Position numbers and translations under genes: made by a program. From positions 1,937 to 65,936 of the forward strand of contig CAZHXX010000007.1 of NCBI GenBank assembly GCA_964536485.1: a stretch of 64,000 nt of DNA, read 5' to 3'. The notes beneath the pieces were generated by a model that worked only from the letters and a program-made list of their open reading frames with translations, ran no database searches and was not told the DNA's origin. Source of the DNA: an uncultured Candidatus Saccharibacteria bacterium. Lineage in GTDB: Bacteria > Patescibacteriota > Saccharimonadia > Saccharimonadales > SZUA-47. Below are positions 9,486 through 53,418 of the stretch, piece by piece (position 1 is the first letter of the stretch; each line of letters opens with the position of its first letter).

Positions 9486-10418
9486 CTACTGCGAGGTATC
9501 GGGCTCTTCGTGTGAGCGATGAAATTTTTGGTGTACCGCTTTGAGATGTGGGTCGGTAACGTGCGTATATATTTGGGTTGTCGATATGTTGCTATGGCCA
9601 AGCATTGCTTGCACCGAACGTAAGTCTGCGCCGTTCATAAGTAAATCTGTGGCAAAGCTATGGCGAAGGGTGTGCGGACTGGCATGTTTTGTGATCCCGG
9701 CAAGGAGGGCGTAGCGCGCAACCAGGCGTTGGACACTGCGCGCGGTGAGGCGGTAGTAATTGCCGGAAACTGAAACTTGCTTCGTGCCACTATAACGAAT
9801 GAAGAGAGGGGCACTATTGTCTTGCCGTTTATCGAGGTACTGCTGGACCCACCAGGCCGCAGCGTCGCTTATAAAGATAGGCCTGTCTTTTTGCCCCTTA
9901 CCGCGCACCATGAATTCTTTACGTTTGAGGTTGATGTGGTCTTTGTTCAAGCCCACAAGCTCTGATACACGTAAGCCACTAGAGAAGAGAAGCTCTAAGA
10001 TCGCGCGGTCGCGAAGCCCCTGCAAGGTCTCTAGCTTTGGTCCTGCAAAGAGTCGCTCAAGCTCTTCTTGGTTGAGGAAAGTTACTTGTTTGCGGGTGGC
10101 TTTAGCAAGCTCTATTTTGTCTGCAGAGATAACTTGCATGTCACGTTTGGTACAGAATTTTACAAAACTACGGAGTGCTATGAGGTGATAGTTGAGGGTA
10201 TTTTTTTGTAGCTCATCCGAAGTATTTGTCCCAAGCCGGTTGAGCCAGAGACGCCATTTTCTGATAAGCTCGGCGTCTATGTCAGTGACTTGTATATCAC
10301 CTGCAAAGTCTATGAGACGAGTGAGGTAGTGGTCGTAGTTCTGGATGGTTTTTTGGGAACGACCTTGTTCTATTTCGAGATATTCTAGAAAATCTGTTTT
10401 TGTTTTTGAAAAGAGCAT
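9486..10418 (-). CDS. tyrosine recombinase XerC/XerD family
   Basis: C-terminal catalytic region HTLRHSFATDLLMNGADLRSVQAMLGHSNISTTQIYTHV plus an N-terminal SAM-like core-binding domain. Confidence 0.85.
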   Translation of the reverse strand: MLFSKTKTDFLEYLEIEQGRSQKTIQNYDHYLTRLIDFAGDIQVTDIDAELIRKWRLWLNRLGTNTSDELQKNTLNYHLIALRSFVKFCTKRDMQVISADKIELAKATRKQVTFLNQEELERLFAGPKLETLQGLRDRAILELLFSSGLRVSELVGLNKDHINLKRKEFMVRGKGQKDRPIFISDAAAWWVQQYLDKRQDNSAPLFIRYSGTKQVSVSGNYYRLTARSVQRLVARYALLAGITKHASPHTLRHSFATDLLMNGADLRSVQAMLGHSNISTTQIYTHVTDPHLKAVHQKFHRSHEEPDTSQ

Positions 10419-11033: not shown

Positions 11034-11078
11034 ATAGTTTACAGATGAGACTTAACAGGCTACAGTAGTACCGAGTAA

Positions 11079-11259
11079 GCCCCTGTAGTTCAATGGATAA
11101 AACAATTCTGCACCTCAAGGAAAAGCTCTACTGGCGAACACAGCCAGTGGCTGTGTGAGTTTTCCTTGCTTGGCTGAGCGAAATGCCCTTGGCATTTTTG
11201 CGAACAAAATGGCGCGACTCTTTAGAGTCGAACCTGTTATCATGGATAGTGTTGGAGAT
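11079..11259 (+). pseudogene. truncated 5' copy of tRNA-Arg (52 nt) followed by a 129-nt hairpin-rich spacer
   Basis: 11079-11130 matches the first ~50 nt of the downstream tRNA-Arg except in the anticodon loop (8-9 nt, disrupted). No T-arm or acceptor 3' strand is present. The spacer has three perfect hairpins: CACAGCC-AGT-GGCTGTG, AAATGCC-CTT-GGCATTT and CGACTC-TTTA-GAGTCG. Confidence 0.55.
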
Positions 11260-11334
11260 GCCCCTGTAGTTCAATGGATAAAACAATTCCGTCCTAAGGA
11301 AAAGCTCTAGGTTCGACTCCTGGCGGGGGCACCA
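11260..11334 (+). tRNA. tRNA-Arg (anticodon CCT)
   Basis: Hand-folded cloverleaf: acceptor GCCCCTG/CGGGGGC, anticodon loop GTCCTAA, T-arm CTAGG-TTCGACT-CCTGG, encoded CCA. Confidence 0.85.
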
Positions 11335-11376: not shown

Positions 11377-11916
11377 ATGGCAACGAACGCCTTTAAGGGC
11401 CAATACGACGAAGAAGAAGTCTTGCTGATGTTTCGTAAGCATCCTGTCGTGATGCGTCGTGGTCTTATTTATTTTATGTTTGCGATATTGCTGGGAACGG
11501 TTCCCTCGTTCATTAAGCCTGAGCTTTCTTATTTTTATGCAGGGATAGGTGGCGGATTTATTCTGGGTATTATCGTGATGTTTCCCTCTTGGGTATATTG
11601 GTACTTTAGCGTCAATATAATGACTGACCAACGGTTTATACAGATTGTACAGAAAGGCTTTTTTAAGAAGCGATATTCAGATATTGCACTTAAACAAATA
11701 CAATCGGTGAATTATGAGGTGGTTGGGGTGCAGGAGACATTGCTGGGGTTTGGTACAATTATCATACAGACGTATCTTGGTGATATTGTCATAAACGATG
11801 TGCACAAACCGCAAGAGACCACAAAAGAACTGTCACTTATACTGCGGGATCATGGAAACATCAGCGACACAGCTGACGAAGCAGAAAAAGTAAGCCACGA
11901 AAGATTGAGGCAATAG
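11377..11916 (+). CDS. membrane protein with bacterial PH (YdbS/YdbT-like) domain
   Basis: Two TM helices followed by a DQRFIQI...GFGTIIIQT segment typical of bPH_2 domains. Confidence 0.5.
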   Translation: MATNAFKGQYDEEEVLLMFRKHPVVMRRGLIYFMFAILLGTVPSFIKPELSYFYAGIGGGFILGIIVMFPSWVYWYFSVNIMTDQRFIQIVQKGFFKKRYSDIALKQIQSVNYEVVGVQETLLGFGTIIIQTYLGDIVINDVHKPQETTKELSLILRDHGNISDTADEAEKVSHERLRQ

Positions 11917-12980
11917 TGAAGAAGAAACTGCAACAATTACGAGAGAAACGACTGGCAAAAAAAGAGCTTGCTGAGTCGGGCGTGATTCCGCGCATAACAA
12001 ACGAGAATGTGGCTGAGCACCGTGAGGAAATATTGTCTGGTGCACGCAAGTACATTTATCCCCTGCAACACTCTAAGCACCGCATTATACTGCTCACTAC
12101 TTCTCTTGTTATTGCGACAATTTTAATTTTTACTTCTAGTACGGTGTATTTTCTCTATCGCAAGCAGTCGTCTTCTAGCTTTATGTACCAAGTGACTAAG
12201 GTGCTTCCTTTTCCGGTAGCGAGAACTGGCAATACTTTTGTTGCGTACGAAAACTATCTCTTTGAGCTACGTCACTACATCCACTATTACGAAACTCAGC
12301 AGAAGTTAAGCTTTGAGACAGAGGCGGGGCAGGACCAACTGTCTGCTTATAAAAAGCGTGCACTCGATGATGTGGTGAACATGGCATATACAAAAATGAT
12401 TGCCAAGGAACGCGGAGTAAGTGTGACTGAGCAAGAGATTGATGAGCAAATACGAATTGCTAAAGAGCAAAAAAGACTTGGGAGCAACGAGGCGATTTTT
12501 GAAGATGTGTTGCGAGAGTATTGGGACTGGACGATAACCGATTTTCGACGAAGTTTACGCGATGAATTGCTGATTCAAAAAGTGACTCGCTCTCTTGATG
12601 AGGAGGCTGACAAGCGAGCAAGCGAAGCGCTTGCAAAGCTTGCTGGAGGCGAAGACTTTGGTGCAGTTGCAAAGCAATATTCTGATGAGGAATCGACGAG
12701 GGATGCGGGGGGTGAATTCGGTGAAGTAGACCCATCTAACCGCAACGTTTCGCAACAAACTGTTGATACCTTGTTGCGACTGAACGTGGGGCAATACTCG
12801 GATGTAAAAGTGATCCCTTATGAGACAGGATATGCACTCGAGATTGTGAAGAATCTAGAGAAGAAGGGGAGTGGGGCACGAGGTGCTCGTATCATTTTCC
12901 GATTGAAGGATTTGGAAGCTACGTTGAATGATCGTAAGGATAAGCAACCTTATCGGATGTATATTTCTTTGCCTAATTGA
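11916..12980 (+). CDS. peptidyl-prolyl isomerase, SurA-N/parvulin (PpiC) type, membrane anchored
   Basis: GTG start, one TM helix, C-terminal parvulin-like FGAVAKQYSDEESTRDAGGEFGEV...GYALEIV. Confidence 0.65.
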   Translation: MKKKLQQLREKRLAKKELAESGVIPRITNENVAEHREEILSGARKYIYPLQHSKHRIILLTTSLVIATILIFTSSTVYFLYRKQSSSSFMYQVTKVLPFPVARTGNTFVAYENYLFELRHYIHYYETQQKLSFETEAGQDQLSAYKKRALDDVVNMAYTKMIAKERGVSVTEQEIDEQIRIAKEQKRLGSNEAIFEDVLREYWDWTITDFRRSLRDELLIQKVTRSLDEEADKRASEALAKLAGGEDFGAVAKQYSDEESTRDAGGEFGEVDPSNRNVSQQTVDTLLRLNVGQYSDVKVIPYETGYALEIVKNLEKKGSGARGARIIFRLKDLEATLNDRKDKQPYRMYISLPN

Positions 12981-13030
12981 TAAATTAGAGATATTTACGT
13001 AGCTTTTAAAAGCTATTGGTAAAAACTTCT

Positions 13031-13572
13031 TCTCGCTTCATTTTCGGCAGTGCTTATCAGCACTTTGCACGAGTTGCAGTGGGCGATGCCTGCCCCCACC
13101 CAGCCATACTTTTGTTTGCAGGTGCAAAAGTATGCAAAAACCCCGCAGCATGCAAGAAAAGCACGATTGGCTTCTTTACAGAAATGAAGCGTTCCTTGCG
13201 GAACGCTCTAAAGAGCGGTCAGAATAGTTACTGAAAGAGAGTATTCTGACAAGTCCTCGGAAATGACTCCCTTCATTTCTGCAAAGAAGCCATCGGTTTT
13301 CTTGCGGTGCTGGAGAGCTACAGAGCTACTGTAGCCTAACCAGCCTTTAACAATAAGACTGATGCCATACAGAGAAATGACAACGAATCATTTCCGAGGA
13401 CTAGTCAAAAGTCTTCTTATTTAATAACTACTTTTGACCGCTTGTGTTCCGCAAGGAACGCTGTCATTTCTCTGTATGGCAATCATGTTCTTATTGTAGG
13501 CTGCGGGGCGTTTTGGGTACTTTTGGACCTGTAGCTAAAAGTACCGCTGGGTTAAAGGGCAGCAAAGCCCTT
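13031..13572 (+). repeat. structured repeat locus R1: inverted dimer of two repeat units (13031-13325 forward, 13338-13572 reverse)
   Basis: Central hairpin GCTACAG-agcta-CTGTAGC at 13317-13337. Each arm folds into its own long branched hairpin. Homologous to loci at 17.6, 32.3, 34.2, 37.7 and 38.8 kb. Confidence 0.85.
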
Positions 13573-13690
13573 TTTCTTGATGAAGCTGACAACAGCTTTT
13601 CACGGGGTCTTGTAATTAACACCTTAGGATGGTACTATTATTCGAGTTTCAAGATGTAGTTTCTGTACTATATCTCGCAACAATAAACGC

Positions 13691-13767
13691 GGGCTCGTGG
13701 TGTAGTGGCCTAACATGCCTCCCTGTCACGGAGGAGATCGCCGGTTCAAATCCGGTCGGGCCCGCCA
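13691..13767 (+). tRNA. tRNA-Asp (anticodon GTC)
   Basis: Acceptor GGGCTCG/CGGGCCC, anticodon stem-loop CCTCC-CTGTCAC-GGAGG, T-loop TTCAAAT, discriminator G, encoded CCA. Confidence 0.85.
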
Positions 13768-13939
13768 AGACAAAAGTCTCATGCATTGCATGGGGCTTTT
13801 TTCTTGGGCAGACACTCGTCTGCGATTTGAACCGAAAGTCGGCGTAGCCGCGGTTCATAATTCTCGATTAGAGAATTATATGCAGAGCCTGAGAAATCCT
13901 TCAGTAAGTAATTAAAGATTTCCCAGCGCGAAGCCATAC

Positions 13940-13955
13940 ATCCGGTCGGGCCCGC
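13940..13955 (+). repeat. 16-nt direct repeat of the tRNA-Asp 3' end (att-like scar)
   Basis: ATCCGGTCGGGCCCGC is identical to 13750-13765 inside the tRNA. Confidence 0.7.
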
Positions 13956-13997
13956 TAAGTGGACAAAAATTACTATACATGGTACTATATTTTTTTT

Positions 13998-14543
13998 ATG
14001 AGTTATATAGAGGTTGTTGGTTTTGTGCCTGAGTCGCTTCGATCTGTTATGTCGCAGCCTTTGCCCAATTGGACGATAAGCGCCGAGAATCCTCTGTTAA
14101 AATTGTACTCAGGCGTATATCACAGTAACGATGAATTGAGAAATGGGCAACGAGCGGGACGGTATGAAGATGAGTTGGGCGGAGAGTATGTTGATTTATT
14201 TAACTCAGTAGCTAACATTGGACATATTTCTTGTTCTCGAGCAGCATATGTACAGATCGACCTTGTGCAAGGACCAGCAAGTGAAATTGGTAATCAGCTT
14301 GGATGGCATACAGACGAGGGGCTACATTACCAAAGATTAGTAGTGTGTGACAAGTATGGAACACTGTACGGTTCAAGAGAAGCGCCAATCACAACACCGG
14401 ACTATGGCATTTTGAGTTTTGACGACGAAGCTCTGCATAAACCAAATTTAGGGCCTGAACACGAAGTAAAAACAAGATTACAGGTGACATCAGTGCCTAG
14501 ATCGCCTAGCAGATTATTTGAAACCAGATTTAGTATGGACTAG
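13998..14543 (+). CDS. hypothetical protein (possible Fe(II)/2OG-oxygenase-like HxD motif)
   Basis: ORF 13959-14543; ATG at 13998 preferred. GWHTDEG motif only, function not supported further. Confidence 0.45.
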   Translation: MSYIEVVGFVPESLRSVMSQPLPNWTISAENPLLKLYSGVYHSNDELRNGQRAGRYEDELGGEYVDLFNSVANIGHISCSRAAYVQIDLVQGPASEIGNQLGWHTDEGLHYQRLVVCDKYGTLYGSREAPITTPDYGILSFDDEALHKPNLGPEHEVKTRLQVTSVPRSPSRLFETRFSMD

Positions 14544-14584
14544 AGCATTGTTGCCTATGACGAAATAGCTGTAGACTTCTTTTC

Positions 14585-15181
14585 TTACAGCTCGTCTATT
14601 ACGGAGCTTGAGGCGTGGGGTAGCTGGTCGAGCATGAAGGCTTGGTCAAACCAGATGCTCGAAGCGGGATCTCTCAAGAAGCGTTCGGCATCCTCTATGA
14701 TTTCTAGCTGAGGGCCTGCATAGTTTCTTAGTGCCGTAAATTCTTCTGCACAGGTGCTGAGGTTTGTCCACGCGAGCTGGACTACCGGCATTTCCTCGCC
14801 CGTACTATCGTCAAAAACAGTCGTTAGACATTCTCTCGCCAAAGGGAAAAAGTAATTAGGGCTGTCTCGGAAAAGAGTTACGTAGCGACGGACCCTTTGG
14901 ACTTCTTCAGTAGCAGATTTAACTCCACGTTTATGACGACGACATGGATCTACATTCGCATAATTTGCGATGAACGAGAAGACATATTCTTCTGCCATTG
15001 CGTGTGGTGGCAAACCTTGGTCACCAGCATACCAGTGAACGAGCTCTCGGTCAGATTGACTCAATGTGGCAAAATAGGACGTTGCCTCTCCGTGCTCGCT
15101 CGCATCTGGGTATTCACCAAGAGGATTAGCATGAATAAGAGTTTCATATGAAGGGAAGTGACTGTCAACTATAGAACTCAT
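14585..15181 (-). CDS. hypothetical protein
   Basis: 198-aa ORF with no recognisable motif. Confidence 0.55.
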   Translation of the reverse strand: MSSIVDSHFPSYETLIHANPLGEYPDASEHGEATSYFATLSQSDRELVHWYAGDQGLPPHAMAEEYVFSFIANYANVDPCRRHKRGVKSATEEVQRVRRYVTLFRDSPNYFFPLARECLTTVFDDSTGEEMPVVQLAWTNLSTCAEEFTALRNYAGPQLEIIEDAERFLRDPASSIWFDQAFMLDQLPHASSSVIDEL

Positions 15182-15255
15182 TTATGCATAATAGCTATAT
15201 AGTTGCTAGCTTGTCAAACATAAGCTATTTAAAGGAGCTTATGTGGGAAAAGTCT

Positions 15256-15993
15256 CTACCATTCTGAAGCACGCCCGAAGGCGGTATAAGCGATAATTGT
15301 TGCATTACCAAATGGCTCGGTAGGCAAAATGCCATATGCTGTAGGTCGGATAAAATCATCTGCTTGAAGATCGTTACGAGGTGCTTGGGCAATGTAGGCA
15401 AGAACTGTCACTCCACTTGCAACTGCTGAATGTGTCATGTTTTCTGGGACATGGAAATAAGTGTCTTCTTGACCTTCACTCAGGTCGGCAACAGCAGCTT
15501 GAACAGCTCCTCTGCCGCTCAATAGAACTGCTGCCCCGTAGACTGTGTGCCCGAGCCCGGATTGAGTCGTATCAGTCTTGATGTTCAGATTAAGGACATC
15601 GATGTTCCGACGCGCGAGAAGGTATAGTTCTGCAGGGTCGGTGTTTGGTGCAAATGCGTATTGTTCGTGTGGTGCTTCTTCCGGTTGAAGAGCAACCATT
15701 GGCTCTCCTGAAAGATGCTCAAGCGCGACTGTTGCTACTTGCAAAATGTGCGCTGTTTGTTCAGGGCGAAGCTGTCTTAGCGATTCTGACGTTCTCCATC
15801 GTCTGGAATCTAGTGAAGTAAGCGTGTCTTGCAAGCTCGGGTCAACGAGACTAGCCGAGTTCAAAAAAGGGTTTGCATCAAGCAGTGCCATTGGTAGTTC
15901 TCGCCCAAGTTTTGCAAAAACTTCTGCTGGGTTCTCTCCAGGCAGTTGTTGGTTGACATGTAGGGTAGGGATTGTTTCTAATTTGTTCGTCAT
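15256..15993 (-). CDS. hypothetical protein
   Basis: 245-aa ORF with no recognisable motif. Confidence 0.55.
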   Translation of the reverse strand: MTNKLETIPTLHVNQQLPGENPAEVFAKLGRELPMALLDANPFLNSASLVDPSLQDTLTSLDSRRWRTSESLRQLRPEQTAHILQVATVALEHLSGEPMVALQPEEAPHEQYAFAPNTDPAELYLLARRNIDVLNLNIKTDTTQSGLGHTVYGAAVLLSGRGAVQAAVADLSEGQEDTYFHVPENMTHSAVASGVTVLAYIAQAPRNDLQADDFIRPTAYGILPTEPFGNATIIAYTAFGRASEW

Positions 15994-16068
15994 AATGAAA
16001 GACTATACAATATATGTAATTATCGTCAAAACATTATTCTAACTTCATTACTAGTAAGCAAGCTGATT

Positions 16069-16296
16069 TTAGGCAGCTAGATTTTGGTCCGTTTGGTGAC
16101 CTCGAAAATGTTCACTCATGTGTACCGGTGCTTCAGATGGTGCAGTAAGCGCAGCACCTCCCGCCCAGCCTGCGATTCTCTTTACTCTCTCCCAGACTGG
16201 CAATCTGTCCTGTTCGCCCGTAGAGAGGCCATAGAACGCCCCTAATCTAAAACCATTTTCGTTGTAGCCCAAGTATTCTCCTGCGCGATTTTTCAT
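16069..16296 (-). CDS. hypothetical small protein
   Basis: 75-aa ORF. GGAGAA-type RBS region upstream. Confidence 0.4.
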   Translation of the reverse strand: MKNRAGEYLGYNENGFRLGAFYGLSTGEQDRLPVWERVKRIAGWAGGAALTAPSEAPVHMSEHFRGHQTDQNLAA

Positions 16297-16551
16297 ATTT
16301 TCGTTCTCCTTCTATTTGTGCAAAAGAAAACTCCCCGGTTTGGTTCCGGGGAGTTGTTTTGCTTTGTTGATTATTTGTTGGCTACAAAGAAATACACTCC
16401 CCGTGGGTCTTAATAATGAGCACCGCAACTTGTGTATTACAATTGATAACCATACGAGACTAGGTTACGCCTCGAGTTTGGTGATGTCAACAATTTGTAT
16501 TTGTGGGATTTATCACAAAATTTTTTGTGACACAGGTGTATAAAGATAGGT

Positions 16552-16905
16552 ATGCTACCAGATTCTGTGAGCTGGGGAAGAGGGATAGACAAGCCACTGC
16601 TTGTTTTTAAACCAGACACTTTAGGTGGTCATTTTGAAGGGGTATTAGGGACGTCCCCACCTATCACAGGCGATAGGCTTGCCGTAAATGGATTTACGCG
16701 GGAGCAGGCAAGGTTTATAGAAGCTGCGATACAGCACGGAACCGTTGGTACTGAAGTTGTAGGTGTTATCGTGTCTAGCAGGCTGAAGGCTTGCGCAGAA
16801 GTCGCTGGTACTTATGCGCTCCAGAATTGTACAGTCTCAATTTTGAATGGTAATTTACGTGCTACGGGGCTTTCGGGAACAGAAATTGTTGAAGTAAATG
16901 ACTAG
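16552..16905 (+). CDS. hypothetical protein
   Basis: 117-aa ORF. Confidence 0.45.
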   Translation: MLPDSVSWGRGIDKPLLVFKPDTLGGHFEGVLGTSPPITGDRLAVNGFTREQARFIEAAIQHGTVGTEVVGVIVSSRLKACAEVAGTYALQNCTVSILNGNLRATGLSGTEIVEVND

Positions 16906-16957
16906 CAATTAGTGAAAGCATTCTTGGTGCTGATTTTTCTTGCTATGATTAAGGGCG

Positions 16958-17518
16958 ATGAAACGATTTTTGATTTTACACGGTACTGACGGAAGCCCAA
17001 ACGCAAACTGGTTTATGTGGTTGAAGGGTGTACTAATAGGTATGGGCTACCAAGTTTGGCTCCCGCAACTTCCCGGAGCAGAAGCGCCAGATGCAAAGAA
17101 ATATACAGAGTTTTTGCTGGCAAATAAGTCGTTTGTGTTTGATGATGAAACAATTGTGGTCGGGCATTCTTCTGGTGCGGTTGAGATATTGCACTTGCTT
17201 CAGAATTTGCCTGAAGGGTCAAAGATAAAGGCAGCAGTTTTGGTTGCAACGTTTAAAGACGATCTTGGGTGGGATTCATTAACCGGGATGTTTGAAGAGC
17301 CTTTAGATTTTGATGCTATAAAAATGCATTGCGGTAGATTTGTGTTTTTGCACTCTGATGATGACCCTTATTGCCCAGTAGCACATGCTGAATATTTGGT
17401 CGGCAAAACGGGTGGGGAATTGGCTTTGTTTGAGGGGCAGGGACATTTTAATACTGAGCTGAGTCATAGGTATCGGCAGTTTCCTGCACTTTTGGATGTT
17501 ATTAAAGAGATACTTTAG
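16958..17518 (+). CDS. alpha/beta serine hydrolase, YdeN/RBBP9-like
   Basis: ILHGTDGSPNANWF, nucleophile elbow GHSSG, later FLHSDDDPYCP and GHFN. Confidence 0.6.
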   Translation: MKRFLILHGTDGSPNANWFMWLKGVLIGMGYQVWLPQLPGAEAPDAKKYTEFLLANKSFVFDDETIVVGHSSGAVEILHLLQNLPEGSKIKAAVLVATFKDDLGWDSLTGMFEEPLDFDAIKMHCGRFVFLHSDDDPYCPVAHAEYLVGKTGGELALFEGQGHFNTELSHRYRQFPALLDVIKEIL

Positions 17519-17612
17519 CGGGCTTTTTCCCTATGACTACTCTCATCTCGTAGCTTCTACGGGCTTTTCTTGTACGCATCCACCTCGTTTTTAATTGCAA
17601 AAACCTAAAAAA

Positions 17613-18142
17613 GGGCTTTGCTGCCCTTTGACCCTGCGGTACTTTTAGCTTCAGGTCCAAAAGTACCCAAAACGCCCCGCACCCAGGATAAAAAACACAA
17701 CTCATGCCAGATACCAGTATCTTCCGCGCTGTGAGGACGACAAGCGCCCAAAAGTAGTTATCTAAAAGAAGACTTTTGGGTTAAGCTCATTGCTCGACTC
17801 GTAAGACACTGATTGCCATGAATCAGTTTTTTAGAGGGTGTGTAGCTACAGTAGCCACATCAGCACCGCAAGAAAACCGATGGCTTCTTTACAGAAATGA
17901 AGAGAATCATTTCCGAGGACTTGTCAGAATACTCTCTTTCAGTAACTATTCTGACCGCTCTTTAGAGCGTTCCGCAAGGAACGCTTCATTTCTGTAAAGA
18001 AGCCAATCGTGCTTTTCTTGCATGCTGCAGGGTTTTTGCTTACTTTTGCACCTGGAGGTAAAAGTAAGGCTGGGTGTGGGCAGGCATCGCCCACTGCAAC
18101 TCGTGCAAAGTGCTGAAAGCACTGCCGAAAATGAGGTGAGAA
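17613..18142 (-). repeat. structured repeat locus R2: inverted dimer, reverse complement of R1
   Basis: 17860-18142 is the near-identical reverse complement of 13031-13325. 17613-17690 is the reverse complement of 13500-13572. Confidence 0.85.
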
Positions 18143-18249
18143 GCGTACTCAATTCTTGTAGGCTGTGCATGTGTCGCTCACTTGCTCTAGGGCATTAACA
18201 ATCAAGAATAATTATTGAAAAAAACGTAAATTATAGTATAATAATTTTA

Positions 18250-20938: not shown

Positions 20939-21511
20939 ATGATGAATGCTATTATTTTGCACGGAAAGCCTGATAGGGAAGAATACTACGACCTGACGAT
21001 GCCAAGCATGAGTAACGCGCACTGGATACCGTGGCTACAGGCACAACTTTTGAAAAAAGATATTTTTGCAGTAACTCCAGAAGTACCGTTTGCATTTGAG
21101 CCAGACTGGGAGCTGTGGTGTAAAGAAGTAGAACGTTTTGAAATTGGACCCGATACAATGATTGTTGGGCATAGCTGTGGCGGGGGTTTTTGGCTACGCT
21201 GGTTGAGTGAGCACAAAGATATTTCAGTTGGGAAAGTTGTCTTGGTGGCGCCTTCACTTGGTTTGAGTTGGGAAGACAAGGGAAAAAAATTCTTTCAGAA
21301 TTTTGTGCTAGACCCTGAGCTTGTAAGTAGAGCTAAAGGGCTCACTATTTTTCACTCTGATGATGATAATGAAAGCATAGTTCAAGCGGTTGAGAAAATA
21401 AGCGCACAAGTACCGGGAATAAAATTTAGGGAATTTCATCTAAAGCATTTCACAATTAATGACCTGAAGACTCCTGAGTTCCCTGAACTTCTTAGTGCGC
21501 TTGTATATTAA
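20939..21511 (+). CDS. alpha/beta hydrolase, YdeN/RBBP9-like (paralogue of 16958-17518)
   Basis: ILHGKP..., GHSCGG elbow, IFHSDDDNES. Confidence 0.5.
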   Translation: MMNAIILHGKPDREEYYDLTMPSMSNAHWIPWLQAQLLKKDIFAVTPEVPFAFEPDWELWCKEVERFEIGPDTMIVGHSCGGGFWLRWLSEHKDISVGKVVLVAPSLGLSWEDKGKKFFQNFVLDPELVSRAKGLTIFHSDDDNESIVQAVEKISAQVPGIKFREFHLKHFTINDLKTPEFPELLSALVY

Positions 21512-30471: not shown

Positions 30472-31791
30472 TCAGAGAAGTTTATTCTTAGCATTTCTCC
30501 TAGTCTTATTTAGTTGTCTTGCAATAATATTAGATTCAGTTTTTTTGTAAGCACCTCGCATATAATCAGCTTTTTTCTGACCTCTCAAATGCCTTGAAAT
30601 CGTAGAAGATCGAAATGATATTGAAGCTCCGTTAAAATGAAAGCCTAAGTACTGAGGGTCTTTTCGTTTGCTCGAAACTTTATTATCAATACTTTTAGTT
30701 ATGTTCTCAAGATCCGTTTCACCTTCTATTTTACGAAAGACTTCTGTCTTTTTTAAGCTTAGTCTAAGCCCATGAGACGCCAGGGCTTTAGATATATTTA
30801 GATATACATTCTTAGATTGTCCTATTGGGCATATTATTAAAATATCGTCACTGTAACGCTGGTAAAAACCACCGAGACTTCCTACTACTACCTCTTTAGT
30901 AGCTTTATCAAACTCTGATAAATATAAATTTGCTAGTAGCCCACTGATTGGGCTTCCTTGTGGTATGCCGAACCCTGACTTATTAGTCTTGACCTCTTTT
31001 TTTAAATACTTATTATAATCACTAAGACTACAAAATTTTCTGGATTCGTCTATTTTTGTCAGGAATTTCCTTTTGTTCTTTTTGAGTATTTTAAGAGCTT
31101 CGCTATATTCAAGGTATCTATAGCGTGTAATATTTTTAAATATAACTTCATGGTCTGGATTGGCTGAAAATCCACCTTCCAATATTGAGTTCCATCTTTC
31201 GTGGAGTATTGAGTGATTCAGGTTATCGAAAAAACCTTTAACATCCAACATTATGCATTCGTATTCTGTCCTATTTCGCATTTCATCAAATGCTTCTTTC
31301 GCAAAATCAACGTTATTCTTTCCGTCAACTGATCTGTATGCAATAACATTATTTTCAAGTGATTCTTGCAATAAAAACTTCTCGTAATCTTTCTGTAATA
31401 AATACGAGTAGAAGGAAAGTATCGTCGCATCCCAATGGGAAGCATACATAATAAGCCTAGTTTTAATATGTGGAAATTTTTTCTGGCTACGCTCTCCCTT
31501 TAAAGATGAGAATTCATAGTCGTAAGGAGGCTGAACAAACCTTCTCAGTCGTTTTCCATTTTTTATAAAAGGCAGAAAACCATGACTCTCAAGTCTACCT
31601 TCTTGGCAGATAATTTCTTTTAGTTTTGCTGCTTGAGCTACATCGTTACCAATACGTGGATAGTGCAGTTTGTTATCTATATGGGGGTAGTTACGCTCGC
31701 CAATGAATTTTTTGCCAAATTTCTTATTTCCAAGCGTGGCTTTATGCTTTTGATAAACTAGCCATTCATTAAATTGAATCGTATGTCTCAT
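30472..31791 (-). CDS. stand-alone reverse transcriptase (non-group-II, non-DGR; Abi/UG/DRT-like)
   Basis: RT motifs KTRLIMYASHWD (1-2), IMLDVKGFFDNLNH (A), FGIPQGSPISGLLANLYL (B'), YQRYSDDILIICP (C), LSLKKTEVF (D/6), YLGFHFNG (7). No extra enzymatic domain. The gene is strongly AT-rich. Confidence 0.85.
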   Translation of the reverse strand: MRHTIQFNEWLVYQKHKATLGNKKFGKKFIGERNYPHIDNKLHYPRIGNDVAQAAKLKEIICQEGRLESHGFLPFIKNGKRLRRFVQPPYDYEFSSLKGERSQKKFPHIKTRLIMYASHWDATILSFYSYLLQKDYEKFLLQESLENNVIAYRSVDGKNNVDFAKEAFDEMRNRTEYECIMLDVKGFFDNLNHSILHERWNSILEGGFSANPDHEVIFKNITRYRYLEYSEALKILKKNKRKFLTKIDESRKFCSLSDYNKYLKKEVKTNKSGFGIPQGSPISGLLANLYLSEFDKATKEVVVGSLGGFYQRYSDDILIICPIGQSKNVYLNISKALASHGLRLSLKKTEVFRKIEGETDLENITKSIDNKVSSKRKDPQYLGFHFNGASISFRSSTISRHLRGQKKADYMRGAYKKTESNIIARQLNKTRRNAKNKLL

Positions 31792-32257
31792 ACAGACTTG
31801 AAACTCGACTCCTCGGTGTGGCGCAACACTTTTACATTGCTGTGAGGAGTCGATACATGCAGTAGAGCACTTGCGAAGTGGTGCAGCATAGAGCGGGGTA
31901 ATGGAAAGGTATTTTCTCCAAAGAAATTACGCCTAAGTCAATTCAATCGCGGAGATATACAATAATATCATGGGATATATTGCCATAATTACTATCGCAA
32001 ACTTCATCGTTGGTAAAGGTGAACTACTGTTGAAGTTCAAGAGTAGTTTATCTTTACGCTTGACCGCCTCTGTTAGCTTTACAAGCTTTCTCGGGCTTGA
32101 CCTATGTCCTGTCTCAGCTACTATAATGTGGATCCCGCTTCTCCGTCCACACGTACTATAAAGCTATAGTAGTGGGTTGTTGTTACCCTCAACAGTATCT
32201 TTATTATAGCAAATTTAGAATAAAAAGCTATAGCTTACTAGAATGTATCAAGTCTGT
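31792..32257 (-). ncRNA. candidate RT-associated non-coding RNA / long structured 5' leader
   Basis: No ORF on the RT strand. Bounded by a 10-nt inverted repeat at 31792-31801 and 32248-32257. Contains a 9-bp stem (31806-31814 with 31844-31852) and an 11-bp hairpin at 32022-32048. An extended -10 TGCTATAAT reads on the minus strand at 32211-32203. Confidence 0.35.
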
Positions 32258-32290: not shown

Positions 32291-32536
32291 TCAGCATGTA
32301 GCCTCCAGCATAAAGCAAGAAAACCGATGCCTATTACTCAAAATGCAGTGAATCATTTCCGAGGACATGTCAAAAGTCTTCTTATTCAGTAACTACTTTT
32401 GACCGCTTGCCGTCCCGCAGGAACACTACATTTTGAGTAATTGGCAGTCGCAGTTCTTCTTGCCAGCTGGCGGGGCGTTTTGGGTACTTTTGGACCTGTA
32501 GCTAAAAGTACCGCTGGGTATGGGCAGGCAAAGCCC
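32291..32536 (-). repeat. structured repeat locus R3: single unit, same strand as the RT
   Basis: Homologous to 13338-13572. It has the head hairpin GTACTTTT...AAAAGTAC, the GTCAAAAGT/ACTTTTGAC apical stem and the TCATTTCCGAGGAC motif. Confidence 0.8.
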
Positions 32537-32538
32537 AT

Positions 32539-33186
32539 TTATTTAATCCTATACTCCCTCGAAACTCCCCACCCGGAAGCCGCAACGTCCCCACGATGGG
32601 TCAAAAGTTGCATATAATGCTGAACCCGGCGTGGCGGAAGATTGAGAGCGCGAGCTATAGTGCGGTTACTCGCAGGGCTGTGAGAAGAGATAAAAGCCAA
32701 AATATCTGAAACATTTTTTTGTGCAACTGCCTGCCGAGCTTCGACGCCCTGGCGACTTAACGACGCCTGGTTTTTCTTGGCATAGAGCGAGGCGGCAGCT
32801 TTGAGTTGCGCGTCGGAAAGCTGAGAAATGTCTATCTCTGCTGCGGGTGGTGGCGGGGTGACTGGTGGTGCCGGAGCAGGGGCAGGTGGCTCCGGTGCGG
32901 GCGCCTTTATCACAGGTGCTGGTGCTGGTTCGGGAACGGTAATGGGTTCTGGACTAGGTTCGGGAATTATGACTGGTTCTGGGACAACGATTGGTTCTGG
33001 CTGGTGAGTTGGTTCAGGAGCAGGTTCTGCAGGAACAGATTCTACAGGTGCTGGCGCAGGGGACGGTATCTCTGCAGGCGGTGCAACGGGTGGTTCTGTT
33101 GCAGGAGTTTCTACTGGTGCAACTTCAACACTTGGCTCTAGTGGCGTGTCCGCTGGTGGTTCTGGAACGGGTGTTTGGTCGTCCAT
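32539..33186 (-). CDS. proline-rich protein with C-terminal winged-helix DNA-binding domain
   Basis: The N-terminal ~110 aa are P/E/A/V-rich. C-terminus is SNRTIARALNLPPRRVQHYMQLLTHRGDV. Confidence 0.55.
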   Translation of the reverse strand: MDDQTPVPEPPADTPLEPSVEVAPVETPATEPPVAPPAEIPSPAPAPVESVPAEPAPEPTHQPEPIVVPEPVIIPEPSPEPITVPEPAPAPVIKAPAPEPPAPAPAPPVTPPPPAAEIDISQLSDAQLKAAASLYAKKNQASLSRQGVEARQAVAQKNVSDILAFISSHSPASNRTIARALNLPPRRVQHYMQLLTHRGDVAASGWGVSREYRIK

Positions 33187-33195
33187 GCTGAAACT

Positions 33196-33645
33196 CTATA
33201 GTTTGATTGGTGTTTTGGGGAAGCCCTTTTTCAGTGCAAGCTCGATAGCAGTTTGAAGCTGAGGGGTACGAAAAGGGAGGTGCTTAAAACTACCTTTGTC
33301 TATCCAGAGTGGTGTGTGTACGTTGCCTTGCATAGAGTTGCTGGCAAGCTTTGCTTCTTCGCTGTCGTCTGAAAGTGCGATGTCGTTGCCGTGTGGACCG
33401 ACGGTGCAGAGGAAAATATATTGTTCTGCATAGGGTTCTGGATGAAGCTCGACGAAGACAAGTTGGGTGCTGGTGACATCGAGACCTGTTTCTTCTTTAA
33501 CTTCACGGATGACGCCTTGTTCTAAGGTTTCGCCTTCTTTTACGCCACCACCAACCAATGTGTAGTACTGGTTGCCGGCTTTAAGGCGACGCATAATAAG
33601 GATACGGTTGTTTTCTATGACTATGGCTCTTGCTGATTTGTTCAT
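33196..33645 (-). CDS. NUDIX hydrolase
   Basis: Nudix box GGGVKEGETLEQGVIREVKEETGL. Confidence 0.85.
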   Translation of the reverse strand: MNKSARAIVIENNRILIMRRLKAGNQYYTLVGGGVKEGETLEQGVIREVKEETGLDVTSTQLVFVELHPEPYAEQYIFLCTVGPHGNDIALSDDSEEAKLASNSMQGNVHTPLWIDKGSFKHLPFRTPQLQTAIELALKKGFPKTPIKL

Positions 33646-34081: not shown

Positions 34082-34157
34082 AGTAGGGGTAAGTATGGGC
34101 TTATGGAGAGGGCTTGTAAATAAGATTTATTGCAGAATATTCTGTACTTTTTTTGGT

Positions 34158-34385
34158 GGGCTATGCCTGCCCACACCCAGCCTTACTTTTCTCTCCAGCT
34201 AGAAAAGTAAGCAAAAGAGCCGCAGCCTACACAAAAAAGCGATGAAAATGAATCATAAATGAAACGTGCCTGCGGAACGGCAAGCGGTCAAAAGTAGTTA
34301 TTGAATAGGAAGACTTTTGACTGGTCCTCGGCAATGACTCGTTCATTTTTGTATTCCTTTTCTCGGTTTTTGCGTTTGAGGCTGG
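34158..34385 (+). repeat. structured repeat locus R4: single unit
   Basis: Head GGGCTATGCCTGCCCACACCCAGCC, hairpin TTACTTTTC...GAAAAGTAA, GCCTGCGGAACGGCAAGCGGTC, apical GTCAAAAGT/ACTTTTGAC, GTCCTCGGCAATGA. Confidence 0.8.
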
Positions 34386-34498
34386 TTTGACTGCATGGTC
34401 CAATGTGTAGAGAGTTAAATAGGATTTTATATTTTCGTTCAGAATTTGTTGACAGCTTGGTACATAACTTTATATAGTTAACTAGTAAGTTAACTATT

Positions 34499-37717: not shown

Positions 37718-38297
37718 TGTGGGCGATGCGCCCGAAGTCCCAAAGAAACGAGCATCCTTTTCTAGCCTCATTTTCGGCAGTACGTTCCGTACTTTGCACG
37801 AATAACAGTGGGCGATGCCTGCCCACACCCAGCCTTACTTTTGCCTGCAGGTGCAAAAGTAAGCAAAAAGTCCGCAGCATGCAAGAAAAGCACTATTGGC
37901 TCAGCTAAAGATTCTATCGTTCCTGCGGAACGGCGAGCGGCCTCGTTAGTTACTAAAGTAGAGTAACTCGGCTAGTCCTCGGAAGTGATTCAATAGAATC
38001 TCTAGCTGAGACCATCGGTTTTCTTGCGGTGCTGGAGAGCTACACGAGCTACTGTAGCCACACCAGCCTTTACCCTAAAAACCGAGAAAATGAGACAGAT
38101 GATAAAGGAGTCATTGCCGAGGACTTGTCCGGCTACTCCTTTTAAGTAACTACCCGGACCGCTCTAGCGTTCCGCAAGGCACCTTTGTCATCTGTCTGTA
38201 TTTTCATCGCTTGTTTTTGGGGAGGCTGCGGACTTTTTGCATACTTTTGAGACTGTAGTCAAAAGTATGACCGGGGTGAAGGGGTGTAACGACCCCT
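37718..38297 (+). repeat. structured repeat locus R5: inverted dimer of two diverged units
   Basis: Left unit: CATTTTCGGC-hairpin-TTGCACGA, GGGCGATGCCTGCCCACACCCAGCC, TTACTTTTG...CAAAAGTAA. Right unit (reverse): ATACTTTTGA...TCAAAAGTAT. Central hairpin GCTACACGAGCTACTGTAGC. Confidence 0.8.
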
Positions 38298-38304
38298 CTA
38301 AGAT

Positions 38305-38703: not shown

Positions 38704-38804
38704 GACAATATATTGACATAACGCTAATGATTTTACTAGTGGATAAGTGGGTAGGGATGTGGGGAAATAATTTAAGGCGCTTTCGCGCGGAGTAAAAATT
38801 GCGA

Positions 38805-39045
38805 CTTTTACCAGTCGCGCTAGGTCATACTTTTGCCTGCAGGTGCAAAAGTATGCAAAAACCCCGCAGCATGCAAGAAAAGCACGATTGGCTTCTTTAC
38901 AGAAATGAAGCGTTCCTTGCGGAACGCTCTAAAGAGCGGTCAGAATAGTTACTGAAAGAGAGTATTCTGACAAGTCCTCGGAAATGACTCCCTTCATTTC
39001 TGCAAAGAAGCCATCGGTTTTCTTGCGGTGCTGATGGGCTACACG
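38805..39045 (+). repeat. structured repeat locus R6: single unit
   Basis: 38826-39031 is almost base-for-base identical to 13107-13312. Confidence 0.85.
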
Positions 39046-39061
39046 AGCACAAAGGTGTTGA

Positions 39062-52409: not shown

Positions 52410-53118
52410 ACAAGGTACTGTATGGCTCGTTGTTGGAAAAAGCAACAATAAAAAACGGGAATAAATGTACCGGGCCTAAAAAAGAACAACGACCTGCGAG
52501 AAGTCGTTGTTACAGAGACATTTTTGTTTTTGAGCACTTTTTTTATTCAAGTGCTAGACATATGGTATCGATATGAAATGCTTATGTCAACAACATTTTT
52601 GCATCAAGTTATAGGACCTTATTTTTGCAGGAAAATTCTTTTGTGCATGGGCCTATCAGTAACTTACTAAAGCATAAAAAATACAAAGTTTTCGGGTAGC
52701 AAATAATGACAAGAAGGTGAGGCAGTTTGAATAATGGAGCTTAAGAAAGCCTATGTGGTAATCCCGTATGAGGTATGAGGTAGTCTTTTGATGCGATGCG
52801 GAATGTGCGCAGTAATTTGCCCGAAAAAGGTGGCAGGAACACAGAATGGGACTATTAAGTAAGGTAGAATTTTAGAAAATTTTTACCGATTTTTTGGCGT
52901 AGTAATGGGAAGTTGGGCCAACAGTTGTTAGGCCAGATTAGTTCTGACCGAAGGAAAAATTTAAGTAGGTGTCATATAAAATTGTCCAAAATAATATCTA
53001 TTTTTGTAAAAAATATTGTTGTAAAAAATAAGCTGTATATTTTTTATATAATTATATAAAATCCATAGTTTAAAGTGTTTTTATAATTTTAACAACAATA
53101 TAATTACGATTTATTGTA

Positions 53119-53147
53119 TTGACTTTTAAAATCATTCGTGCTAGTAT
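53119..53147 (+). promoter_or_regulatory. candidate sigma70 promoter inside the long intergenic gap
   Basis: TTGACT (53119-53124), 17-nt spacer, TAGTAT (53142-53147). Confidence 0.35.
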
Positions 53148-53328
53148 TAGATCATGTTCAGCAAAAAGAAAAACCCTGAATAAAACAAAAATATCGCCCT
53201 AAGAAGCCTAAAGCTTTTTAGAGCGGTCAGTCAAAGCCTGTGGACGATAAGCGCCTTATAAGTCATAATATTTTGGGTGGATTTATCGTCCAGGCTCCTC
53301 TTAAATAAATGTTCTGTTTTAGTTCAAG

Positions 53329-53363
53329 AATCGCACTTGGAGAGGTGCGATTTTTGCTTTTTT
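53329..53363 (+). terminator. intrinsic terminator
   Basis: AATCGCAC (53329-53336) pairs with GTGCGATT (53345-53352), followed by TTTGCTTTTTT. Confidence 0.55.
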
Positions 53364-53418
53364 AAGTACTTTCTTCCTTGGGTGAAGAACATTATAATAG
53401 GGATAAGGAAATATTACA

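Follow-up and report, generated by a model that had tools for sequence, protein, structure and literature searches.

We analyzed a 64,000-nucleotide (nt) stretch of DNA from an uncultured Candidatus Saccharibacteria bacterium (assembly GCA_964536485.1, contig CAZHXX010000007.1, positions 1,937 to 65,936 of the forward strand), called the window here, and in it two repeats, R1 (13029-13580) and R2 (17603-18143), that lie in inverted orientation on either side of a tRNA-Asp gene and six other genes. An earlier note on this DNA had described R1 and R2 as reverse complements that are more than 90% identical over their outer ~300 nt. This was confirmed: R1 and the reverse complement of R2 are identical at 457 of the 558 columns of a global alignment, and identity over the outer 284 nt is 95%. 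In 50-nt bins, identity is 94-100% in the outer ~280 nt and 62-66% in the middle ~170 nt, and the longest exact run is 122 nt. A repeat finder divided the similarity into inverted arms at 13029-13055 and 18117-18143 (93% identity), at 13057-13312 and 17861-18116 (256 nt, 96%), and at 13486-13575 and 17608-17697 (90 nt, 89%). R1 also matches its own reverse complement at 71%, so the label "dimer" in the earlier note was correct.

R1 and R2 are not a special pair and sit within a dispersed family, which extends the earlier description. The window contains nine related units of ~260 nt, all within 13-39 kb and together ~3.6% of its length, and R1 and R2 account for four of the nine. BLAST of R1 against the window found further copies at 32297-32540, 34156-34351, 37760-38283, and 38826-39048. 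A profile search of the window (E<=10) with nhmmer profiles found exactly nine units and no other match, and the motif TTTTG..TACTTTT..CTG.A..AAAAGTA occurs nine times in the window and not once in 100 shuffles. We read each unit in the direction YGTAGC..CCAGC..GAGTCATTKCCGAGGAC..TAACT..TTTTGnnTACTTTT..CTGnAG..AAAAGTA..GC hairpin.

Six of the units form three head-to-head dimers, R1, R2, and R3 (37760-38304). In R1, the outer half is U1 (13029-13325, - strand; nhmmer E=4.6e-65), an a-type unit with a ~55-nt 3' tail, and the inner half is the b-type unit U2 (13326-13580, +), in which GGGCAGCAAAGCCC and then a T-run at the 3' end make a terminator-like hairpin. The 5' ends of these two units abut at a short palindrome, GCTACAG-AGCTA-CTGTAGC (13317-13335), built from the 5' motifs (YGTAGC) of both. 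In R2, the inner half is U3 (17603-17860, -; E=1.8e-43), with a c-type body (like the units at loci L029a and L096) and a b-type 3' module, and the outer half is U4 (17861-18143, +), again a-type with a tail. R1 and R2 are inverted relative to each other because an a-type unit sits on the outer side of both dimers. R3 is made of U7 (37760-38048, -; a-type with a tail) on the left and U8 (38049-38304, +; d-type) on the right. The other three units are single: U5 (32293-32546, +), U6 (34147-34402, -), and U9 (38801-39050, -), the last of them a mosaic whose 5' 220 nt are of the U1 type (97.7%) and whose 3' hairpin is like that of L057. There is no open reading frame (ORF) or reading frame common to the units, and a hidden small protein was rejected on these grounds. 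As a separate observation, the unit 5' motif YGTAGCY (e.g., 13330-13337), which is often present twice at a spacing of 7-9 nt, is similar to the U8-D-stem segment of tRNAs (..UGUAGCUC..), and a sequence like it, CTACTGTAGC, adjoins tRNA-Arg in L130, a relative described below.

The fold of the units is preserved through compensatory change. The predicted fold is a ~65-bp rod (helices P1-P5) with an apical branch, followed by two 3' hairpins. Within the rod is a stretch of ~22 bp that is paired in every case although its sequence is free to vary. A conserved apical domain (GAGTCATTKCCGAGGAC, TAACT, and GACCGCTTG) caps the rod, and it is this inner domain, not the termini, that is the most conserved part of the unit. 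The 3' module consists of GCGG, a U-run, an 11-bp hairpin with a NNCUGNAG loop, and then a GC hairpin. Single units folded far better than their shuffles (z of -6.2 and, for the minimum free energy of U2, -9.2). In an alignment of 24 units, RNAalifold predicted 47 pairs, 41 of them with compensatory change. In an alignment of 40 units from Saccharibacteria, 85.2% of the cells of a 75-pair structure were paired, compared to 67.0 +/- 0.6% after shuffling (none of 500 shuffles reached the observed value), and sliding the partners by 1-3 columns reduced pairing to only 40-48%. In the same alignment, 60 of the 75 pairs had changes on both sides, and the covariation score was 0.454 versus 0.157. One helix of 25 pairs (columns 41-68 of the alignment with 162-191) is nearly free in sequence, and 82% of it is paired. 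Within the conserved core, a pair of columns switches between G-C (17 units) and U-A (17 units), indicating that UUKCC pairs with GGMA and not within the local hairpin that a single sequence had suggested.

Three other proposals found no support. The 5' YGTAGC motif does not covary with the CUGNAG loop. A helix between the 5' CCAGC and the GCUGG that follows the hairpin was unsupported by a subfamily with CTCGC and GCGAG. The variable helix, considered as a guide, had no match of 14 nt or more in the window outside the units.

The DNA between R1 and R2 is an old variable region linked to tRNA-Asp, and this "island" is not delimited by the repeats. Several features that had been noted there are real: the tRNA-Asp (GTC) gene itself (13691-13767, +); a tRNA 3'-end scar, that is, a direct repeat of the tRNA-Asp 3' end (13940-13959, +) that matches 13750-13769 at 19 of 20 positions and that we take as an integration scar; and a YdeN-like hydrolase (16958-17518; Ser_hydrolase/YdeN-type, PF06821, E=3.6e-16). 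There was indeed no recombinase or transposase among the enclosed ORFs tested, and four other enclosed ORFs tested had no Pfam match. The scar copies have only ~170 nt between them and there is no integrase, indicating that the tRNA-linked island is a remnant. Upstream of the gene is a promoter-like site, TTGTAA-17 nt-TACTAT (13610-13638, +), read from the sequences and conserved in relatives. The variable genes occupy 13959-17518; the left part (13959-15993) is without a counterpart in the relatives examined, and the right part (16316-17518) is shared with L130. A tRNA-Asp 3'-end scar was also seen in the relative L126 (11368-11677), ~294 nt downstream of the gene, indicating that tRNA-Asp is a recurrent integration site in the lineage.

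The tRNA-Asp gene is constant in relatives and the repeats are not. The PpiC-type gene that flanks R1 (11916-12980) has hundreds of homologues, of which the few with a named source bear the label Candidatus Saccharibacteria or Saccharimonadales. In relatives whose PpiC is 81-88% identical, the order of genes upstream is unchanged (type IV pilus genes, XerC/D-like, Ndk, tRNA-Arg, bPH, PpiC), and tRNA-Asp (+) comes after PpiC in all of them, with the same sequence beside PpiC in L068, L126, L128, L130, and L135. One of these, L130 (PpiC 88%), is the sole other genome with both dimers, and its architecture and orientation are those of the window: PpiC, a dimer, tRNA-Asp, a cargo of GNAT and HD genes, orthologues of 16316-17518 (Ser_hydrolase 89%), and the second dimer. 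L128/L129 and L068 have a single (-) unit 72-77 nt from tRNA-Asp, and L135 has the unit and tRNA-Asp as a pair in reverse orientation; there is no right-hand repeat in the DNA compared from any of these. In L126/L127 just ~100 nt of a 3' module is left beside tRNA-Asp. Since tRNA-Asp is constant while the repeats vary, we conclude that tRNA-Asp and its promoter are ancestral at this spot. The earlier note had suggested looking for relatives that lack the island and keep one repeat; relatives with a single unit or a 3' remnant do exist, but tRNA-Asp is still in place in them.

A second junction is occupied in a far more distant relative. In L144, whose GmhB is 45% identical at the protein level, a (+) unit lies 15 nt after gmhB, in the position that corresponds to that of U5. 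In the window, a cassette for a DRT2-type reverse transcriptase, missing from the junction of gmhB and the unit in L144, separates gmhB from U5. These comparisons of gene order show that units stay at particular gene junctions even between distant relatives. Together, the extensive compensatory change that keeps the fold and the presence of units at the same junctions in distant relatives argue for function rather than junk.

The units also recombine with one another. U1 and U4 are 95% identical over 284 nt and U1 and U9 are 97.7% identical over 218 nt, with a mutual identity of 95-98% among U1, U4, and U9. The positional counterparts in L130 are less similar, at 91% for that of U1 and 74% for that of U4. 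Because U1 and U4 are closer to each other than to these counterparts, the a-type unit must have been copied or converted within the genome after the divergence from L130. The identical tract ends at the 5' boundary of the unit. U2, U3, and U5 have a common 3' module and different bodies. That units are mosaic and partly homogenized indicates that they recombine. Units also coincide with the boundaries of rearrangements: synteny with L130 ends at R2 and its counterpart, the second dimer (D2), and a NUDIX gene between U5 and U6 (33196-33645) sits in the tRNA-Asp region of L126 (13017-13493) and of L128 (14563-15036), at 68-73% identity, a placement that indicates a translocation bounded by units. 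The part of the window that varies in gene content contains all nine units. Since the units mark this part and show exchange, they probably shape genome rearrangement in these organisms.

The 3' module of the units occurs well outside Saccharibacteria. We scanned one genome per GTDB species for the exact pattern of the 3' hairpin and found at least 117 loci. Among the matches listed, full-length units were found only in Saccharibacteria-type metagenome-assembled genomes, and a pattern for the apical domain matched 16 metagenome loci and yielded 14 additional units. The remaining matches listed were mostly from Bacteroidota, with a few from Oscillospiraceae, Gammaproteobacteria, Desulfuromonadales, and Endomicrobia, and had the 3' module alone in common. 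In Bacteroidota, the module is inside non-coding multi-copy repeats of 280-730 nt, often at contig ends. GCGG is within 16 nt upstream of the module in 61 of 78 loci, a stable hairpin is downstream of it in 62 of 78, and the sixth base of the loop is G in 97 of 98 loci though it was free in the search pattern. The 205 nt upstream of the module fold better than shuffles (median z -2.3). These shared features show that the 3' module is homologous beyond the search pattern, and across phyla. In a Saccharicrinis sp. (L102, 6396-7164), the unit profile also matched partially at three tandem sites ~327 nt apart, indicating that copies of a related Bacteroidota element can follow one another in direct tandem arrays, in place of head-to-head dimers.

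The units are absent from Rfam. At the gathering score, Rfam 15 found only five tRNAs and RNase P in the window. With R1 and R2 as queries and E<=10, there were chance-level matches only, so that no Rfam 15 family (TwoAYGGAY, HEARO, IS605-orfB, ROOL, GOLLD, OLE, raiA, and 6S among them) was matched. Among related loci, Rfam found Flavo-1 elsewhere and one TwoAYGGAY RNA (RF01731, 47.8 bits) in Vibrio, at L026, where the module comes directly after the RNA and overlaps its end. We found no description of the units in the literature. There was no match to the units in plasmid and phage collections, and viral contigs gave six chance matches to the hairpin only. We rejected a TnpB or IscB guide RNA and a remnant of an insertion sequence: none of 31 cases had an ORF of this kind ending upstream of the module, and among the matches listed, no protein family recurs beside it.

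The module ties the units to abundant, unannotated elements of Bacteroidota and other phyla, and to TwoAYGGAY. We tentatively suggest, at well below even odds, that the units, the Bacteroidota multi-copy elements, and the TwoAYGGAY RNAs are one cross-phylum superfamily of structured RNAs of ~250-700 nt, whose shared 3' module (GCGG, a U-run, an 11-bp hairpin with a CUGNAG loop, and a GC hairpin) would be bound by a conserved partner. If so, the superfamily would represent a novel class of RNA with distinctive biochemistry; its members might, for instance, form RNA-protein particles, process themselves, or serve as the RNA component of a route of spreading not yet described. The head-to-head dimers and YGTAGC ends would then be its insertion signature.

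Based on these results, the best-supported explanation is that the units are a family of persistent, structure-constrained, recombining intergenic elements. Each unit starts sharply at YGTAGC and is predicted to fold into the ~65-bp rod with its conserved apical cap and two-hairpin 3' module. Units would act as single-stranded folded molecules, most likely as non-coding RNAs of ~260 nt read from the unit strand, and copies would be exchanged between loci by homologous recombination or by a copy-paste process. We believe that expression of the units as predicted structured RNAs of ~260 nt is slightly favored. The units are not leaders of the downstream gene, as this gene is convergent with the unit at 58 loci and co-oriented at 34 (92 loci). 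Saccharibacteria genomes are very small, yet the window alone carries nine copies of one elaborately folded non-coding element.

Several observations weigh against a function as RNA, and some of them fit an element that moves as DNA. The structure was predicted on the same alignment that was used to count pairs, and many of the sequences are related. The excess of G-U cells over A-C cells is modest (164 versus 103), and 83.1% of the cells are paired on the complementary strand. The alifold energy is -89.9 for the unit strand and -82.0 for its complement, and the unit strand has the lower energy in 26 of 40 single-sequence folds. With pairing of the two strands nearly equal, selection may act on DNA hairpins instead. 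There is a T-run after the last hairpin in only some units (U2, U3, U9, and those at L064, L084, and L138), and there is no conserved promoter upstream of the units, where the flanks are unrelated. Homology starts abruptly at YGTAGC, as would be expected of an inserted element more than of a gene. Finally, in all seven adjacent pairs (three in the window, two in L130, and one each in L060 and L029), different subtypes meet head to head, which suggests targeted insertion.

The units could therefore be non-autonomous mobile DNA, similar to miniature inverted-repeat transposable elements (MITEs), REPINs, or BIMEs, with a transposase encoded elsewhere that recognizes the YGTAGC end or the single-stranded DNA in its folded form. 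Insertion of new copies would be preferred at the 5' end of a resident unit, producing dimers, and the hairpin would be kept for transposition. The sharp 5' boundary next to unrelated flanks, the invariably head-to-head mixed pairs, and the similar pairing potential of both strands are all in keeping with this, as are the near-identical copies at different sites (U1, U4, and U9, and, in L134 and L145, three copies whose variable helix is the same), the multi-copy habit of the related non-coding Bacteroidota elements and their frequent location at contig ends, and the location of all nine units among variable genes. Nonetheless, target-site duplications were not found next to R1, R2, or R3 or at the ends of the whole 5.1 kb (flanks ..GGTAAAAACTT | CGTACTCAAT.., at 13029 and 18143), there is no terminal inverted repeat on a single unit, and there was no transposase among the ORFs tested in the window and no recurrent neighbor of the module among the matches listed. 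Conservation is greatest in the inner apical domain and not at the termini, and units persist at the same junction in relatives with as little as 45% protein identity. A single-strand mechanism of the IS200/IS605 type has a strong orientation bias, and the units are mixed in orientation within 26 kb. Taken together, we consider mobile DNA of this kind a possible but rather unlikely explanation.

The earlier note had focused on R1 and R2 and proposed that they are substrates for inversion or the ends of a composite mobile unit. In the first case, the a-type units U1 and U4 would undergo RecA-dependent crossover, flipping tRNA-Asp and six genes. Homologous inversion is physically possible, given the length and similarity of the inverted repeats (95% over 284 nt, including the 122-nt exact run); the homogenization of U1 and U4 implies exchange between the two copies, and the nearby tRNA-Arg gene has the opposite orientation to that in three relatives, showing that the lineage does undergo small inversions. 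But the evidence points to a single orientation: the second one was not seen, L130 has both dimers the same way round, and GC skew is positive inside the segment, as in its flanks. (The short-read contigs of this organism stop at the repeats.) No promoter or gene is placed such that flipping would alter expression, the conserved promoter of tRNA-Asp lies with its gene inside the segment, and units elsewhere are single or otherwise arranged. There is also no dedicated invertase beside the segment. The only nearby recombinase is the XerC/D-like gene (9486-10418), and relatives that lack the arrangement have this gene at the matching position, with ~91% identity. We regard an inversion switch as improbable, though inversion at a low frequency may occur. 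In the second case, the whole 5.1 kb would be a composite transposon or mobile island, consistent with ~0.55-kb inverted repeats at its ends and with left-hand cargo genes that differ between relatives. The search for target-site duplications that the earlier note had called for found none outside the repeats, and neither a transposase nor a recombinase was found among the inside ORFs tested, nor a conserved ORF in the repeats. tRNA-Asp stays beside PpiC in relatives with a single unit or a remnant and no right-hand repeat, and L130 shares synteny over part of the cargo (16316-17518). In addition, the composition of the segment is that of its flanks, and the inner halves of R1 and R2 are of different subtypes. 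The lack of a duplication and of a transposase, together with the synteny, leads us to reject a composite transposon, which we think has hardly any chance of being correct. Thus, as part of a family of recombining intergenic elements, R1 and R2 do not appear to define a mobile or invertible island, and their bracketing of the tRNA-Asp region looks incidental.

The gene between gmhB and U5 encodes a DRT2-type antiviral reverse transcriptase (30472-31791, -; 439 aa; PADLOC Drt2 E=1e-102; NCBIfam Drt2 299.9 bits, below the cut-off of 390). Its cassette (30472-32205, -) has a non-coding leader of ~400 nt upstream of the gene, with its own TATAAT site (32213-32208). The leader folds modestly better than shuffles (z -2.45) and had no Rfam match. 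In KpnDRT2, the leader RNA is the template for rolling-circle cDNA synthesis (PMC11100668), and by analogy the leader in the window should be a template RNA of this kind. We considered U5 as the non-coding RNA of DRT2 and rejected it, as U5 is outside the leader, beyond the TATAAT site and on the opposite strand, and there is no reverse transcriptase near units at other loci.

Other features of the window were noted in passing. The hydrolase at 16958-17518 has a YdeN-like (Ser_hydrolase) paralogue at 20939-21511; the two match each other weakly, and each is ~27-28% identical to the orthologues of the other. L126 and L128 have an orthologue of 20939-21511 only, and L130 has the orthologue of 16958-17518 (89%) on an 8.7-kb contig that ends before the expected position of 20939-21511. 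The tRNA-Arg (CCT) gene (11260-11334) is 100% identical to that of L130 and is inverted with respect to the flanking genes compared to L130, L126, and L128. Nearby is a partial, degenerate copy of the 5' half of tRNA-Arg and its upstream sequence (11036-11130), with a 30-nt exact repeat (11079-11108 and 11260-11289). At 52540-53400 there are ~850 nt without a convincing ORF or an Rfam match.

The units have features in common with several known systems. The region they bracket is like a tRNA-linked genomic island in its intact tRNA-Asp, direct repeat of the tRNA 3' end, and variable genes downstream; it differs in the ~170 nt between the repeats, the lack of an integrase, and its independence of R1 and R2. 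Like ERIC, BOX, and Correia elements and MITEs, which are intergenic imperfect palindromes of 100-300 nt with a conserved stem-loop and a transposase that acts in trans or is not identified, the units are short, non-coding, and multi-copy (nine in 64 kb, with no shared ORF). They differ in that single units have unlike ends (YGTAGC.. versus ..GC hairpin), with no terminal inverted repeats or target duplications, in that the inner domain is more conserved, and in their persistence across deep divergence. The organization of the REP, BIME, and REPIN sequences of Enterobacteria and Pseudomonas is more similar: these are non-coding, multi-copy, intergenic hairpin units, often between convergent genes, with subtypes juxtaposed in inverted orientation as mosaics and with positions kept in related genomes. 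REP units are simple palindromes of ~35-40 nt, whereas the units described here are ~260 nt, with ~ten helices, a non-palindromic apical domain, and a separate 3' module. REPIN systems are also defined by a gene, that for the RAYT transposase. TwoAYGGAY RNA (RF01731), for which no function was listed in a 2010 survey (PMC2864571), is similar to the units in its long closing helix and two apical hairpins, and in the one Vibrio locus it is followed by the same UUUUG..UACUUUU..CUGNAG..AAAAGUA hairpin, inside which the Rfam model ends. It differs in that the window units had no match to it at E<=10 and their apical loops are without AYGGAY, so that the link consists of one locus and the shared 3' module. 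We conclude that the family is closest to REP/BIME mosaics by organization and to TwoAYGGAY by fold and one physical link, and that it is a member of neither.

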